From a virus (lineage: Duplodnaviria > Caudoviricetes): a stretch of 64,000 nucleotides of DNA. The stretch covers positions 1-64,000 of the IMG/VR virus record IMGVR_UViG_3300031998_000051. One strand, 5' to 3'. This document shows positions 33,976 through 38,067 of the stretch, one piece after another (the stretch's first letter is position 1; each line of letters starts with the position of its first letter). Below the pieces are notes generated by a model. That model ran no database searches. It was given only the letters and a program-made list of their open reading frames with translations, and was not told the origin of the DNA. The position numbers and the translations under genes are program-made.

Positions 33976-35616
33976 TTAACAACCTACCGCCTCGGGAAAA
34001 TACCAGGTAATCACAAATCCAGAGGATGTAAGCGCTATTTTGTTATTGAGATTGCAGGTTAGCGCAAGGTCGGTGATGGTGTACCATCTTCGACTTACGC
34101 TAACCCTATCACCGTTAGCGGATTGCCCGGAATCTTCGGATTCCGGGTTTTCATTTTCCATGAGCCGAATTTCGAACATCTTCTTTTCTCCCGTGAAGTC
34201 CACGGACATAACGAAATGATCCTTGTACAGATAAACAGCCCGCACAAAGTCGCGGATTATCATCCGTTGAAAATCCGGATCCTTATAGTCACCTTTGCGG
34301 ATGGATTCCAGATAATCCACCACCAAATCCCTGTCGATGTCCAGGGTGTTGTATTTCTCTATGGCGATCAGCCCTTCGAGCTTCTTCTTATCGGCCTGCA
34401 GCACTTCCATGCGCTCTTTGACCTCATCCGACATTATGCCCATTTCAATGGCGCGGATGATGTTGTCGATCTGTTTCTTGGTGGCGGTGAGCCGCTTTTC
34501 ATATGTGGCCATTTTCGACTTCGCATTGTACTTTTTGACGAAAACGACCATGTTGTCAGCGATCCAGTTCACCGTGGAATCATCCAGCACGCATTCAAGA
34601 ACAGCCTTGGTAATCTCGGCTTCGATGTATTCCTTTGAAATGTTCGACTTTTCGCAGGCGTTCTGCGTCCGGCGCGTCTGGCAGGCATAGTAAAAATACT
34701 TGGTGCCAAGGTGTCCGGTCCCAGAGTAGCCCACCATTGCACCGCAGCAATAGCCACAGAACAGCTTCCCAGTCACAAGATAATCGTTATTCTCATGCCG
34801 CCTTGCACGAATAATCTTATATTCGCCCAGCTTCTTTTTCGCCATTTCAAAATCACTCCGTTCTATGATCTGCGGCATACCGCCCTCGATGCGGATGTCA
34901 TCATAAATATATGTCCCGGTATAGCGTTCGTTTTCAAGGATATTGTGAAACGAGTTTTTCTTCCATGGCTTTTTCTGCTTTGTCAGGACGCCACGGCTGT
35001 TCAACTCCCTGGCGATGTCGATGTACGTTTCATCATTGATAAACCGCCGGAAGATTTCAGCGACGATCTTTGCGGCTTCCTCATCCAGCGCATATCGCCC
35101 ATCATCGCCCTTCTTATAGCCATACGGGATGGTGGAGACAACCTTGCACTTCTGGGCGCTGTCCCGGAGTCCGCGCCGGATGTCCTCGGCCATGTTCTCG
35201 GAATAGAACTGGTTCATGTTCATCATGGTGCGGAGCATGAACCGACCTGTGGCATTATCCTCGAATGCCTCTTTGCAATACACGACACGGACGCCAGCAC
35301 GCGAAAGACGCTCCTCATAGCGGAGAGCGTTGGTCATGTTGCGGCTGATGCGGTTGGACTTGTAAGCCAGGAGCACCTGGAACTCATGCCGATCAGCAGC
35401 GCGGAGCATCCGTTGAAGCCCTGGGCGGTTGTCCCTTTTGCCGGAGATTGCGCGATCTTCAAAGGTGGCGACTATTATCAATCCATGTTGTTTTGCGTAA
35501 TCCTGGCACTCCGCGACCTGCTGCTCGATGCTGGCATCGTTCTGGACGGATGAAGAATACCGGGCATAGATTGCCGTGTTGAGTTGATCGAGTGCCTGTG
35601 TTTTCGTTTTTTTCAT
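33976..35616 (-). CDS. Large serine recombinase (integrase)
   Basis: AIYARYSS catalytic Ser, DRAISGKRDNRPGLQRML, DNATGRFM..QFYSEN, zinc ribbon CGYC...C. Confidence 0.95.
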   Translation of the reverse strand: MKKTKTQALDQLNTAIYARYSSSVQNDASIEQQVAECQDYAKQHGLIIVATFEDRAISGKRDNRPGLQRMLRAADRHEFQVLLAYKSNRISRNMTNALRYEERLSRAGVRVVYCKEAFEDNATGRFMLRTMMNMNQFYSENMAEDIRRGLRDSAQKCKVVSTIPYGYKKGDDGRYALDEEAAKIVAEIFRRFINDETYIDIARELNSRGVLTKQKKPWKKNSFHNILENERYTGTYIYDDIRIEGGMPQIIERSDFEMAKKKLGEYKIIRARRHENNDYLVTGKLFCGYCCGAMVGYSGTGHLGTKYFYYACQTRRTQNACEKSNISKEYIEAEITKAVLECVLDDSTVNWIADNMVVFVKKYNAKSKMATYEKRLTATKKQIDNIIRAIEMGIMSDEVKERMEVLQADKKKLEGLIAIEKYNTLDIDRDLVVDYLESIRKGDYKDPDFQRMIIRDFVRAVYLYKDHFVMSVDFTGEKKMFEIRLMENENPESEDSGQSANGDRVSVSRRWYTITDLALTCNLNNKIALTSSGFVITWYFPEAVGC

Positions 35617-35733
35617 AGACATCTTGCCTTTCGGTTTAATGTCTGCTATAATGAAATAGCAGACGATGAACTTGCCTTGTGAATCGGACTGTATAGCCTG
35701 CACCTGTGTGGCCGCACGGATGCGGGCGCTTTT

Positions 35734-36258
35734 TTATTTGAAATTGAGCGTTACGGGCGGCACGTCGTAGGAATTATAATCCGCATCATCGCAGTAGAAG
35801 GAAAGCTCAACCGTCTCCACTTCTTCAATGGTGCTGATGTTCGCATCGGTCAGTAGCAATTTGAAATGCTCTTTTGCCTTATGTCCAGCTTCAATCTCGA
35901 TGTAGCCGACATGCTCCACCTGCCAGCCATTGATTGAAGACGTATTGACATAAATCTCGAAATTCTTATCCGAATTGTTCTCAACTACAAAATCAATTTG
36001 CAGCGCGTCATTCTCATCCACGTAATCGTCAAGGCTATAAGATTGAACCGTTGCTTTGACGCCTTCCACATCAAACAGCACGGCTCCATCAATGCCGGAG
36101 GCGGATCCGCCGCGCTTTGCAAGCTCGGCCTGGGCATTGGCGATCTCGGCTTGAATTGTCGCGTCATCCATTGATGCCCAATCAATCTCGGCAGCGAATG
36201 CAGAACAGCCAACCAGCGTTAGGACAAGCACCAGCAACGTACACTTGAACATCTTCAT
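35734..36258 (-). CDS. Exported acidic protein (signal peptide, beta-sandwich)
   Basis: MKMFKCTLLVLVLTLVGCSAFA signal; VENNSDKNFEIYVNTSSINGWQV. Confidence 0.65.
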   Translation of the reverse strand: MKMFKCTLLVLVLTLVGCSAFAAEIDWASMDDATIQAEIANAQAELAKRGGSASGIDGAVLFDVEGVKATVQSYSLDDYVDENDALQIDFVVENNSDKNFEIYVNTSSINGWQVEHVGYIEIEAGHKAKEHFKLLLTDANISTIEEVETVELSFYCDDADYNSYDVPPVTLNFK

Positions 36259-36328
36259 AACGACATCTCCTTTCATCTGTTACTCAAGAAAGCATTCAAG
36301 GAAATACTCTATATGCGTTTATCCCTCC

Positions 36329-37135
36329 TTATTCTTCTATGTAGTCGTAAAGCGTAATAGTGACCTTTGCGTAGTAGCCGATGGAATCGCGCTGGATGTC
36401 GCCATCCTCATCGAGCATCTTGCTTTTGCCTCCCTTGATTTCTATATCGACATCCAGAATATCATCATTTTCTATCAGTTTTCTGACGTGGCTCACGCTG
36501 CCGCTTTTGATATAACCGATATGCACATTATTCGCCATTACCTTAATGGCATAATTGCCGGTTTCGGCATTGTGTTCTTCTGGTACCAATTCAGCAGAAA
36601 CTGAATCAAATTCATATTGGTAAACCCTTTCCCACGGTGAAAAGTTTTCTTTGAATTCTGATTTTGACAAATCATAATCATAATTATAGAGCCCAATGGA
36701 TTGAATTTCACTTTGCCTAAATGAAACGCCAGCAACTTTATGATTCTCCGTTTTGTGCAGTCTTTTTGCGGGTGTCATTACTGCTGGTGCTGGCGTTGTT
36801 GTTGGCTTCGGTGTTGTCATTTTTACACTGAATGTATATGATGGTGTCGGCGCAGGCGGCTCCGTGGGAACTGTTGTAGGTGTCTGCGGCGTGGAAGGTG
36901 TGAATGGTTCCATCTTGGGCTTTGGCTTCAGCTTTCTGGCAATGGTGCCACACAAACGCTTGATCGAGGTAATGAAAATCACCATCATGCCAAGCGCTCC
37001 AATCCCGGTTCCAGGATTGGAGTCTGGCGCAGAATTCTTGCTGATCATGTTCATGGCCATGCCAACGCACATAATCAGCAATCCGATTATGAATCCGCTC
37101 TTATACCATGGGCGTTTGATTTTCACATAGATCAT
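36329..37135 (-). CDS. Membrane protein with Pro/Thr linker and C-terminal HIRAN-like domain
   Basis: Two TM helices; HKVAGVSFRQ, LVPEEHN..YAIKVMANNVHIGYI. Confidence 0.7.
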   Translation of the reverse strand: MIYVKIKRPWYKSGFIIGLLIMCVGMAMNMISKNSAPDSNPGTGIGALGMMVIFITSIKRLCGTIARKLKPKPKMEPFTPSTPQTPTTVPTEPPAPTPSYTFSVKMTTPKPTTTPAPAVMTPAKRLHKTENHKVAGVSFRQSEIQSIGLYNYDYDLSKSEFKENFSPWERVYQYEFDSVSAELVPEEHNAETGNYAIKVMANNVHIGYIKSGSVSHVRKLIENDDILDVDIEIKGGKSKMLDEDGDIQRDSIGYYAKVTITLYDYIEE

Positions 37136-37247
37136 CCTTTCTAACAAAATCCGTTAGACGCTTCCAAAGTCATATTCTGGTAGAATTTTTATGCTATAAT
37201 CCTTCCAGCCACCGGTGAGCAAGATTATTCTATGGAGGTTGTTGCTT

Positions 37248-37382
37248 ATGGTTACTGACGCTGAATTGAATCTGGCGCTGTCTATTTTCCGGGCTCTGTC
37301 GCAGGAGAATCAGAAGATTTTGCTTGATCTCTCAAGAGAGCTGCGGAAATTACAAGAAGAATATGCCGATTCTGATCGTTGA
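37248..37382 (+). CDS. 44-aa antisense ORF resembling the CI C-terminal helix (candidate antirepressor)
   Basis: RBS GGAGG 37234-38, extended -10 TGCTATAAT 37192-37200; FRALSQENQKILLDLSREL versus CI FSALNDQNRHILLVISAAL. Confidence 0.6.
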   Translation: MVTDAELNLALSIFRALSQENQKILLDLSRELRKLQEEYADSDR

Positions 37383-37674
37383 GTGCAGAGAAGTTATCTA
37401 AAAACTCCTGTTCAAAGATCGTAAGCCCGCCCGATACGGTGGGCTTTTCTTCGTTCTGGTCAAGCAGTTCATCGGGATCTGCTTTTAAGAAATAGTCAAG
37501 CTCCATACCCAAAGCATCAGCAAACTGCTGGATCATCTGCAAATTCACCTTTTCATTATCTCTCTTGATAATAGAATAGATGGTGTTTTTGCTTATTCCA
37601 GTCATTGTTGCCAGTGTTCCAGGCTTTATTCCCTTCATCTTCAAAGCCTCTTCTAACTTTTTTCCGAGTGCCAT
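37282..37674 (-). CDS. CI-like repressor (XRE HTH, no peptidase domain)
   Basis: LATMTGISKNTIYSIIKRD..IQQFADALGM; divergent from cro. Confidence 0.9.
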   Translation of the reverse strand: MALGKKLEEALKMKGIKPGTLATMTGISKNTIYSIIKRDNEKVNLQMIQQFADALGMELDYFLKADPDELLDQNEEKPTVSGGLTIFEQEFLDNFSALNDQNRHILLVISAALLRDQAKSSDSPATEPGK

Positions 37675-37710: not shown

Positions 37711-37828
37711 ATTATATATGTCTTAACAAAAAATGTCAATGAAAAAATTTTGCATTTGCACAGATTTTCTATTGACAAGCACGCAAATTCGTGCTATTAT
37801 TAGGTCACAAAGCACGCAAATGCGGGCT
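37711..37828. promoter_or_regulatory. Lysis/lysogeny switch: back-to-back promoters and operators
   Basis: Minus: TTGACA 37734-39, 17 bp, TATAAT 37711-16. Plus: TTGACA 37772-77, 17 bp, TATTAT 37795-800. Palindrome AGCACGCAAATTCGTGCT in the spacer; second site AGCACGCAAATGCGGGCT at 37811. Confidence 0.9.
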
Positions 37829-37854: not shown

Positions 37855-38067
37855 ATGTATCCGAATTTGGAAAGCGTCATGACGCTTAAGGGCATTACCT
37901 TAGAGAATTTTGCTGCCGCGCTTCACATTCACCGCAACACTGCAGCAAATAAGCTCAAGGGTGAGAGTGATTTCACTTACCCGGAAGCGATGATCATCTC
38001 GGAAGTTCTTTTTCCCGAGTATAAGGCGTCGTACCTGTTCAAACGGAAAGTCGAAGATGTAGGATAG
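37855..38067 (+). CDS. Cro-like XRE regulator
   Basis: MYPNLES.M..KGIT.ENFAAALHIHRNTAANKLKGESDFT; RBS AAAGGAGGTGA. Confidence 0.9.
   Translation: MYPNLESVMTLKGITLENFAAALHIHRNTAANKLKGESDFTYPEAMIISEVLFPEYKASYLFKRKVEDVG

Follow-up and report, generated by a model that had tools for sequence, protein, structure and literature searches.

A mini-gene that runs antisense across the end of a repressor gene and switches the repressor off has so far been shown only in the Bacillus 'arbitrium' phages, in which AimX provides the experimental precedent for such a design. AimX consists of 29–80 residues, and its gene converges on aimC, which encodes a short XRE repressor, and sometimes overlaps the aimC 3′ end (Kabel et al., bioRxiv 10.1101/2025.11.23.689978). 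AimX binds the C-terminal domain of AimC and replaces the second subunit, thereby blocking oligomerization and DNA binding, and co-varies with AimC (bioRxiv 10.1101/2025.11.23.689978). A start-to-stop mutant of AimX is inactive, recoding of the overlap is harmless and the RNA effect in trans is inconsequential (bioRxiv 10.1101/2025.11.23.689978). The authors of that study note the likeness to SinI–SinR and report very few aimC homologues outside arbitrium loci (bioRxiv 10.1101/2025.11.23.689978). SinI and SinR pair through conserved helices, and the resulting heterodimer abolishes DNA binding (PMC3163267). In Vibrio phages, the TF-smORF modules and Qtip each employ a small domainless protein that inactivates its cognate cI specifically and without proteolysis (Silpe et al., Nature 2023, PMC10432266). 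The CI protein of the lactococcal phage TP901-1 combines an N-terminal HTH with a helical dimerization domain and is antagonized by the small protein MOR, not by RecA cleavage (PMC11149083, PMC4941734).

The locus described here lies in a viral DNA stretch of 64,000 nucleotides, the whole of which is hereafter called the window. The record around the window is a 77.8-kb IMG/VR virus that is called complete by CheckV. A classical lysis–lysogeny switch occupies ~37.2–38.1 kb of the window. Its CI-like repressor is a protein of 130 residues encoded on the − strand (37282–37674), as delineated by the ORF list, Pfam and AlphaFold2. The repressor consists of an XRE helix-turn-helix (residues 1–66, 37477–37674), a disordered linker (residues 68–81, 37432–37473; AlphaFold2 pLDDT <50), a C-terminal helical hairpin (residues 86–120, 37315–37419; AlphaFold2 helices 86–96 and 100–120) and a tail (residues 121–130), all on the − strand. 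The repressor gene is served by a perfect consensus promoter (TTGACA, 17 nt, TATAAT; 37711–37739, − strand). The + strand carries the early lytic promoter (37772–37800), two operators of the sequence AGCACG-N6-CGTGCT (37778–37795 and 37811–37828) and, divergent from the repressor gene, a Cro-like small helix-turn-helix gene (70 aa, 37855–38067). The operators are palindromic and are therefore dimer sites. The Pfam search of the repressor returned only HTH-type families (HTH_26/HTH_3 at residues 4–67) and no S24 peptidase domain; the protein is thus not a CI of the lambda type, and the sequence-only reading, a first inspection of this DNA without database searches, was correct in describing the repressor as devoid of an autocleavage domain.

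Relatives of the repressor are few. They form 16 clusters, of which the sole named one is a distant 'Ruminococcus sp.' protein, and the C-terminal motif is kept across the family. GenBank phages gave no match to the region, the repressor or the small protein described below, either by DNA similarity or by tblastn of both proteins, and a scan of genome contigs with the repressor alignment yielded no confirmed relative. The sample names of related contigs refer to rumen and gut metagenomes, which suggests that these elements are uncultured rumen or gut phages. Beyond the 3′ end of the repressor gene, the same strand encodes a membrane protein, a lipoprotein-like protein (36329–37147 and 35734–36276) and a serine recombinase (33976–35703). 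The product of 36329–37147 contains 272 residues with a membrane segment at the N-terminus and has no Pfam match below E=0.01; its counterpart gene in locus L005 (3555–4265) has a HIRAN match on record.

The sequence-only reading had drawn attention to a 44-codon + strand ORF across the repressor 3′ end. This ORF is present (37248–37382, ATG start), overlaps the repressor ORF by 101 nt and, as a conserved ORF, represents the candidate antirepressor gene. The closest known arrangement is that of AimX–AimC, which it resembles in several respects. In both systems, the repressor is a small XRE protein that has no cleavage domain and is built as HTH, linker and helical C-terminus; here, the 44-aa ORF converges on the 130-aa HTH-only repressor, with the divergent cro-like gene beyond. 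Unlike in the AimX–AimC system, where the aimR receptor gene and the aimP peptide gene directly precede the antirepressor gene in the same orientation, neither aimR nor aimP is found here, and the + strand upstream of 37248 holds no credible gene, the genes of that region being on the − strand (ORF list). The present phages also differ in origin, being from uncultured rumen or gut sources according to sample names and not from Bacillus, and the two systems are compared here by description.

The small gene is furnished with its own expression signals. The ribosome-binding site and the extended −10 reported by the sequence-only reading are both in place. The Shine–Dalgarno sequence GGAGG (37234–37238, + strand) precedes the ATG by 9 nt, and the extended −10 TGCTATAAT (37192–37200, + strand) ends a promoter region (37166–37200, + strand) that begins with a block at 37166–37186. 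The consensus promoter scan overlooked TGCTATAAT because it has no −35. A second −10-like element, TGGTAGAAT (37178–37186, + strand), is located inside the block, 14 nt upstream of TGCTATAAT, and a tandem pair of such elements occurs in the window and in L162. The ~20-nt block 5′ of the −10 contains ATTCT-GGT-AGAAT and is near-identical in the window, L001 and L162, though their repressors are only ~60% identical.

Downstream of the −10, at a distance of 8 nt, a conserved element, CCACCGGTGAG (37209–37219, + strand), covers approximately +1 to +10 of the antisense transcript and includes the perfect palindrome CACCGGTG (37210–37217, + strand). The CCACCGGTGAG element recurs at the equivalent place in L009, L011/L012, L015, L163 and L166, and other perfect 8-nt palindromes take the CACCGGTG position in L162, L014 and L010. 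Overall, a perfect 8-nt palindrome centred 27–36 nt 5′ of the small-gene start, just past the −10, is seen in nine of 12 loci, as CACCGGTG in six and as CTCCGGAG, TGCCGGCA or ATGCGCAT in a single locus apiece. Between the variants, bases change in symmetric pairs that preserve the dyad, and the palindromes are dissimilar to the repressor operator. This palindrome may be the operator of another regulator or a methylation-sensitive site. No LexA box was found upstream of the small gene in the nine loci examined, which we count as a difference from AimX–AimC, and no repressor operator is located near the small-gene promoter. When viral contigs were scanned for CCACCGGTGAG plus GGAG, the hits were mostly chance matches in unrelated high-GC contigs; among 80 examined, only the L015 contig was real.

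An intrinsic terminator of the small-gene transcript, absent from the sequence-only reading, consists of a 9-bp stem, a 6-nt loop and a T-rich tail (37423–37446 plus a T-run to 37456, + strand). It sits in repressor codons 77–84, within the linker. Because the repressor model is disordered there, the linker is free to carry a terminator. The terminator stems contain G–T pairs and, between the window and L001, a compensatory change from C–G to T–A; such pairs and changes work on one strand only, which favours a + strand terminator. The small-gene unit is thus a complete cassette of promoter, Shine–Dalgarno sequence, ORF and terminator with a predicted transcript of ~245 nt. This predicted stop in the repressor linker distinguishes the unit from aimX, whose transcripts span the full aimC ORF in some phages. 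The lambda OOP RNA is a non-coding cis-antisense RNA directed against the 3′ end of cII. Like OOP, the unit described here is a short promoter-to-terminator element antisense to the 3′ end of a lysogeny regulator gene; unlike OOP, its transcript is filled by a conserved and apparently selected ORF.

Is the small ORF a gene? The sequence-only reading had made its proposal depend on whether related CI genes keep the antisense frame, and they clearly do: frame, start, Shine–Dalgarno sequence, promoter and terminator recur across 14 divergent metagenomic loci, in each of which a small gene (34–60 aa) extends across the repressor 3′ end. The repressors of these loci are only ~40–60% identical to that of the window or have an altogether different N-domain. 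The frame relation is identical in all 14 loci, with first codon positions opposite each other. A Shine–Dalgarno sequence at the right spacing is found in 13 of the 14, L013 being without a clear one, and a −10 element 32–47 nt 5′ of the start is found in 12, including ten of the extended TGnTAnnAT type and the plain TATAAT of L011 and L163. All 13 loci whose sequence reaches this far into the repressor gene have a linker terminator (9/9 in the first set plus L162, L163, L179 and L180); L166, whose sequence stops short of it, was left out of this count. Every locus with a repressor C-terminal motif of the same type has an antisense ORF of 44–57 aa over the repressor 3′ end. The small gene is absent from distant XRE relatives with other C-termini (L016–L040, L168–L176). 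Several control XRE loci also have an open antisense frame of 39–78 aa in the same frame and spanning the stop; the frame alone therefore means little, and conservation decides.

The conservation of the small gene is not a by-product of repressor conservation, given that the small-protein motif is largely outside the repressor ORF in several loci. The overlap of the two ORFs varies between 41 and 122 nt, and in L013 and L015 nearly the entire motif lies past the repressor stop codon. In one clade, dN/dS is 0.10–0.64 over 18 codons outside the overlap. Between clades, synonymous sites are saturated and the motif persists; pairwise dN/dS is uninformative there because of this saturation. A profile of nine small proteins searched against 1.84 billion proteins retrieved 35 cluster representatives, nearly all of 34–90 aa; L179 and L180, two new members from this list, likewise extend, in the same frame, over the 3′ end of an HTH gene that converges on them. 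The protein collection at 90% identity contains only nine small-protein members, all unnamed, and the small protein belongs to no Pfam or PHROG family. Taken together, the 44-aa ORF is almost certainly a real gene.

The gene could nonetheless act through its RNA, in that the ~245-nt antisense transcript or convergent transcription would be the functional product, like lambda OOP RNA on cII, and the peptide would be dispensable. Such a role accords with a complete promoter-to-terminator unit located wholly within the repressor 3′ region and the spacer and with the terminator as the best conserved feature (13/13 loci). We consider it decidedly unlikely, given that the conservation acts at the protein level, as judged from the motif kept despite saturated synonymous sites and from dN/dS below 1 outside the overlap. 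Furthermore, start codons and Shine–Dalgarno sequences are retained, and several loci place only 41–50 nt of the small ORF over the repressor ORF. The precedent of the AimX phages, in which the start-to-stop mutant is inactive and overlap recoding has no effect, also speaks against it (bioRxiv 10.1101/2025.11.23.689978).

The small protein resembles the C-terminal hairpin of its repressor. The sequence-only reading had counted a match at nine of 19 positions, which is accurate; over a 27-residue motif, the identity is 11/27 with a BLOSUM62 score of 39, which none of 20,000 residue shuffles reached. By hhalign, residues 3–44 of the small protein align with repressor residues 84–128 (probability 92%, E 6.7e-7). 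AlphaFold2 predicts the small protein to be a two-helix hairpin with helices at residues 4–16 and 19–43 (mean pLDDT 91.8), and the repressor C-terminus is likewise confidently predicted as a helix-turn-helix hairpin. In contrast to AimX–AimC, a sequence homology of the small protein to the C-terminal domain of its own target is detectable here. The hairpin of the repressor is presumably a dimerization or oligomerization module, by analogy with related repressors.

The analogy to SinI–SinR drawn by the sequence-only reading fits these data. Among solved structures, SinR gives the repressor family its best sequence match (E 1.4e-6), and the repressor model aligns with SinR of the SinR–SinI complex over 95 columns (TM 0.52). 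As in SinI–SinR, the repressor is an XRE protein whose C-terminal part is a helical hairpin, and the small protein is homologous to that hairpin. The two systems differ in that the present locus is a phage switch and SinI–SinR is chromosomal. In addition, sinI is not known to be antisense to sinR. The SinI Pfam family was matched by neither the small-protein family nor the repressor (hmmscan, E≤1), and the small protein gave only weak matches at chance level. The hairpin fold itself is generic. A Foldseek search with the 44-aa model gave no significant match, and VIA-align returned generic helical-hairpin matches with Z up to 5.4. The small-protein model is weakly like the TP901-1 CI dimerization domain (Z 4.3, 35/35 residues); this match and that to the CapH C-terminal domain (Z 4.1–4.3) are tied with hundreds of others, and the similarity to the C-terminus of a C. 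difficile XRE protein (Z within 4.1–4.8) is not above background. MOR, the TP901-1 antagonist, is the product of the divergent gene at the cro position and binds the N-terminal domain; it is not known to be a C-terminal copy or antisense.

The small proteins of the Vibrio phages offer a looser parallel, in which a small phage protein without known domains faces its cognate repressor; inactivation in the present case is a reading by analogy. The TF-smORFs also differ in that a divergent transcription factor encoded next to them drives their expression and that they lie clear of cI (PMC10432266). They are not presented as domain copies of their repressor, and the words 'antisense' and 'overlap' do not occur in that text (PMC10432266).

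The two homologous motifs share part of their coding DNA. The motif-coding stretches extend over 37275–37355 (+ strand) for the small protein and 37324–37404 (− strand) for the repressor, and in each protein the C-terminal half of helix 2 is read from the same 32 nt (37324–37355), on opposite strands. This 32-nt sharing was found in seven of nine loci measured and is 23 nt in the other two. Such sharing of 23–32 nt in the nine measured loci, together with the frame relation fixed in 14/14, sets the present family apart from AimX–AimC. The reciprocal layout proposed by the sequence-only reading is thus real; the view that each motif is encoded opposite a purely unstructured tail does not hold, as the parts opposite each motif comprise the last part of helix 2 as well as the tail in the AlphaFold2 models.

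A 21-nt imperfect inverted repeat (37306–26 / 37353–73, 76%) underlies the core of the match. The motif-coding stretches have a DNA identity of only 49% in the window and 28–54% across loci, and third codon positions are no more alike between the arms than first or second positions. The arm-to-arm folding z is −0.15 in the window and −0.9, −0.3 and +0.6 in other loci; L005, which folds as a long hairpin (z −4.6), is the sole such locus. The low DNA identity and the unconserved pairing of the arms indicate that the likeness is kept at the protein level. An inverted-duplication origin, as put forward by the sequence-only reading, is weak given the arm identity and the lack of enrichment at third codon positions, which likewise leaves a recent gene conversion or clean inverted duplication unsupported. 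A conserved RNA hairpin between the motif-coding arms was ruled out, because pairing and z-scores are not conserved and arm identity is low. An invertible cassette that swaps repressor C-termini was also ruled out, because each small gene has its own promoter, Shine–Dalgarno sequence and terminator; it is further opposed by repeats that are not conserved in DNA.

These data bear on the most sceptical view of the small ORF, namely, that it is a by-product of a chance frame held open through repressor codon usage, of a conserved RNA or DNA hairpin or of an invertible segment. The open antisense frames over the stop in several control XRE loci, the 21-nt inverted repeat of the window and the L005 hairpin would be in keeping with this view. 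It is extremely improbable, however, in light of the unconserved arm pairing and low arm identity, the retention of motif, Shine–Dalgarno sequence, promoter and terminator even where the motif is outside the repressor ORF, and the possession by every small gene of expression signals that an invertible cassette would not need.

The repressor and the small protein appear to be partners. Across 12 loci, cognate motif pairs are more alike than non-cognate pairs (sum 405 versus a permuted mean of 243, sd 38), a comparison in which part of the motif similarity falls in DNA common to both frames. The cognate excess holds both for the first 16 residues, whose coding DNA is separate, and for the last 11, whose coding DNA is shared. 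In a clade-level test with four clades, the cognate pairing ranks second of 24 permutations. At the sequence level, the co-variation of repressor and small protein is suggestive rather than decisive once relatedness is counted. Furthermore, the hairpin, the small gene and the terminator are found together behind three unrelated N-terminal DNA-binding domains, i.e., the window type, L163 (789–1142, − strand) and L179/L180 (1274–1645 and 1091–1450, − strand). This domain shuffling indicates that the C-terminal hairpin and its antisense partner travel as one cassette.

The occurrence of one hairpin type with different DNA-binding domains makes cross-reaction between phages plausible, and the small protein might aim at another target, either the same-hairpin repressors of competing or co-resident phages or a host protein. 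Trans-acting antirepressor crosstalk is described for the Gifsy prophages (PMC3121763). Nevertheless, tight linkage to and co-variation with the cognate repressor favour the cis partner as the primary target, and we assign a very low probability to a target elsewhere.

What, then, does the small protein do to its repressor? We propose that it is probably a dominant-negative antirepressor of the SinI and AimX type, as judged from sequence, structural models and analogy. The repressor is inferred to dimerize via its hairpin, given that the operators are palindromic and that SinR, AimC and TP901-1 CI act in this manner. As a free-standing copy of the two-helix hairpin, the small protein would pair with the hairpin of a repressor monomer and replace the second repressor. 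The resulting heterodimers, with a single DNA-binding domain, would fail to hold the palindromic operators and would free the early lytic promoter. The small gene would be driven by its own extended −10 in the spacer 3′ of the repressor gene and transcribed toward the repressor, and the antisense transcript would end after ~245 nt at the terminator in the disordered-linker codons. Convergent transcription from the consensus repressor promoter probably holds the small gene low in a stable lysogen, and the 8-nt palindrome at the transcript start would be the best candidate control site. A contribution of the antisense RNA is structurally possible, and RNA pairing would add a minor effect at most. 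The probable antirepressor role is favoured by the reality of the gene, the mimicry, the partnership, the need for a release mechanism in a system with dimer operators and no cleavage domain, and the precedent; counting against it are the generic nature of the hairpin fold, the second rank of the cognate pairing at clade level, the share of the similarity that falls in DNA common to both frames and the finding of neither a LexA box nor another recognizable inducing input.

Homology, co-variation and modular linkage show a partnership, not its sign. The small protein could bind the repressor hairpin without inactivating it and instead set the oligomeric state, stabilize the repressor, shield it from proteolysis or act in the establishment of lysogeny. 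A promoter that looks constitutive, with an extended −10 and no recognizable inducible operator, would suit such a role. However, a hairpin without a DNA-binding domain that occupies the dimerization surface should reduce operator affinity, and both characterized parallels of the small protein, SinI and AimX, are antagonists; we therefore regard a non-inactivating role as unlikely and retain the antirepressor as the probable one.

In its fuller form, which we put forward tentatively as one possible picture, the antirepressor model describes a self-contained repressor/antirepressor pair encoded on both strands of the same DNA and operating without arbitrium or SOS. A co-evolving copy of the hairpin, a terminator in linker codons and a mobile cassette would be its elements, and convergent transcription and titration would constitute a commitment step gated by a factor at the palindrome.

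To our knowledge, the induction of short repressors without a cleavage domain, which are common in temperate phages of Gram-positive bacteria, is mostly unexplained. The present locus suggests that the answer can hide opposite the repressor gene itself, in antisense ORFs that are usually passed over by gene callers. The antirepressor model, which is entirely computational, would carry the principle of AimX–AimC past the arbitrium phages of Bacillus and into uncultured phages of the gut and rumen, and the hairpin motif, the fixed frame and the linker terminator provide a sequence signature for further cases. The locus is also a clear natural example of two homologous protein segments, putatively interacting by analogy, that are encoded on opposite strands of overlapping DNA.

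Two further observations concern the wider family. P0049, whose source is high in GC, is a longer protein (154 residues) that lacks Pfam domains and ends in the small-protein motif (residues 122–153, the extreme C-terminus); it may be repressor-like and share the hairpin. In one clade (~L011:1860–1900, ~L014:1857–1897), a hairpin followed by a T-rich run is located on the repressor strand just past the repressor stop, where it falls within the N-terminal codons of the small gene. In this clade, each gene may carry the other's terminator.
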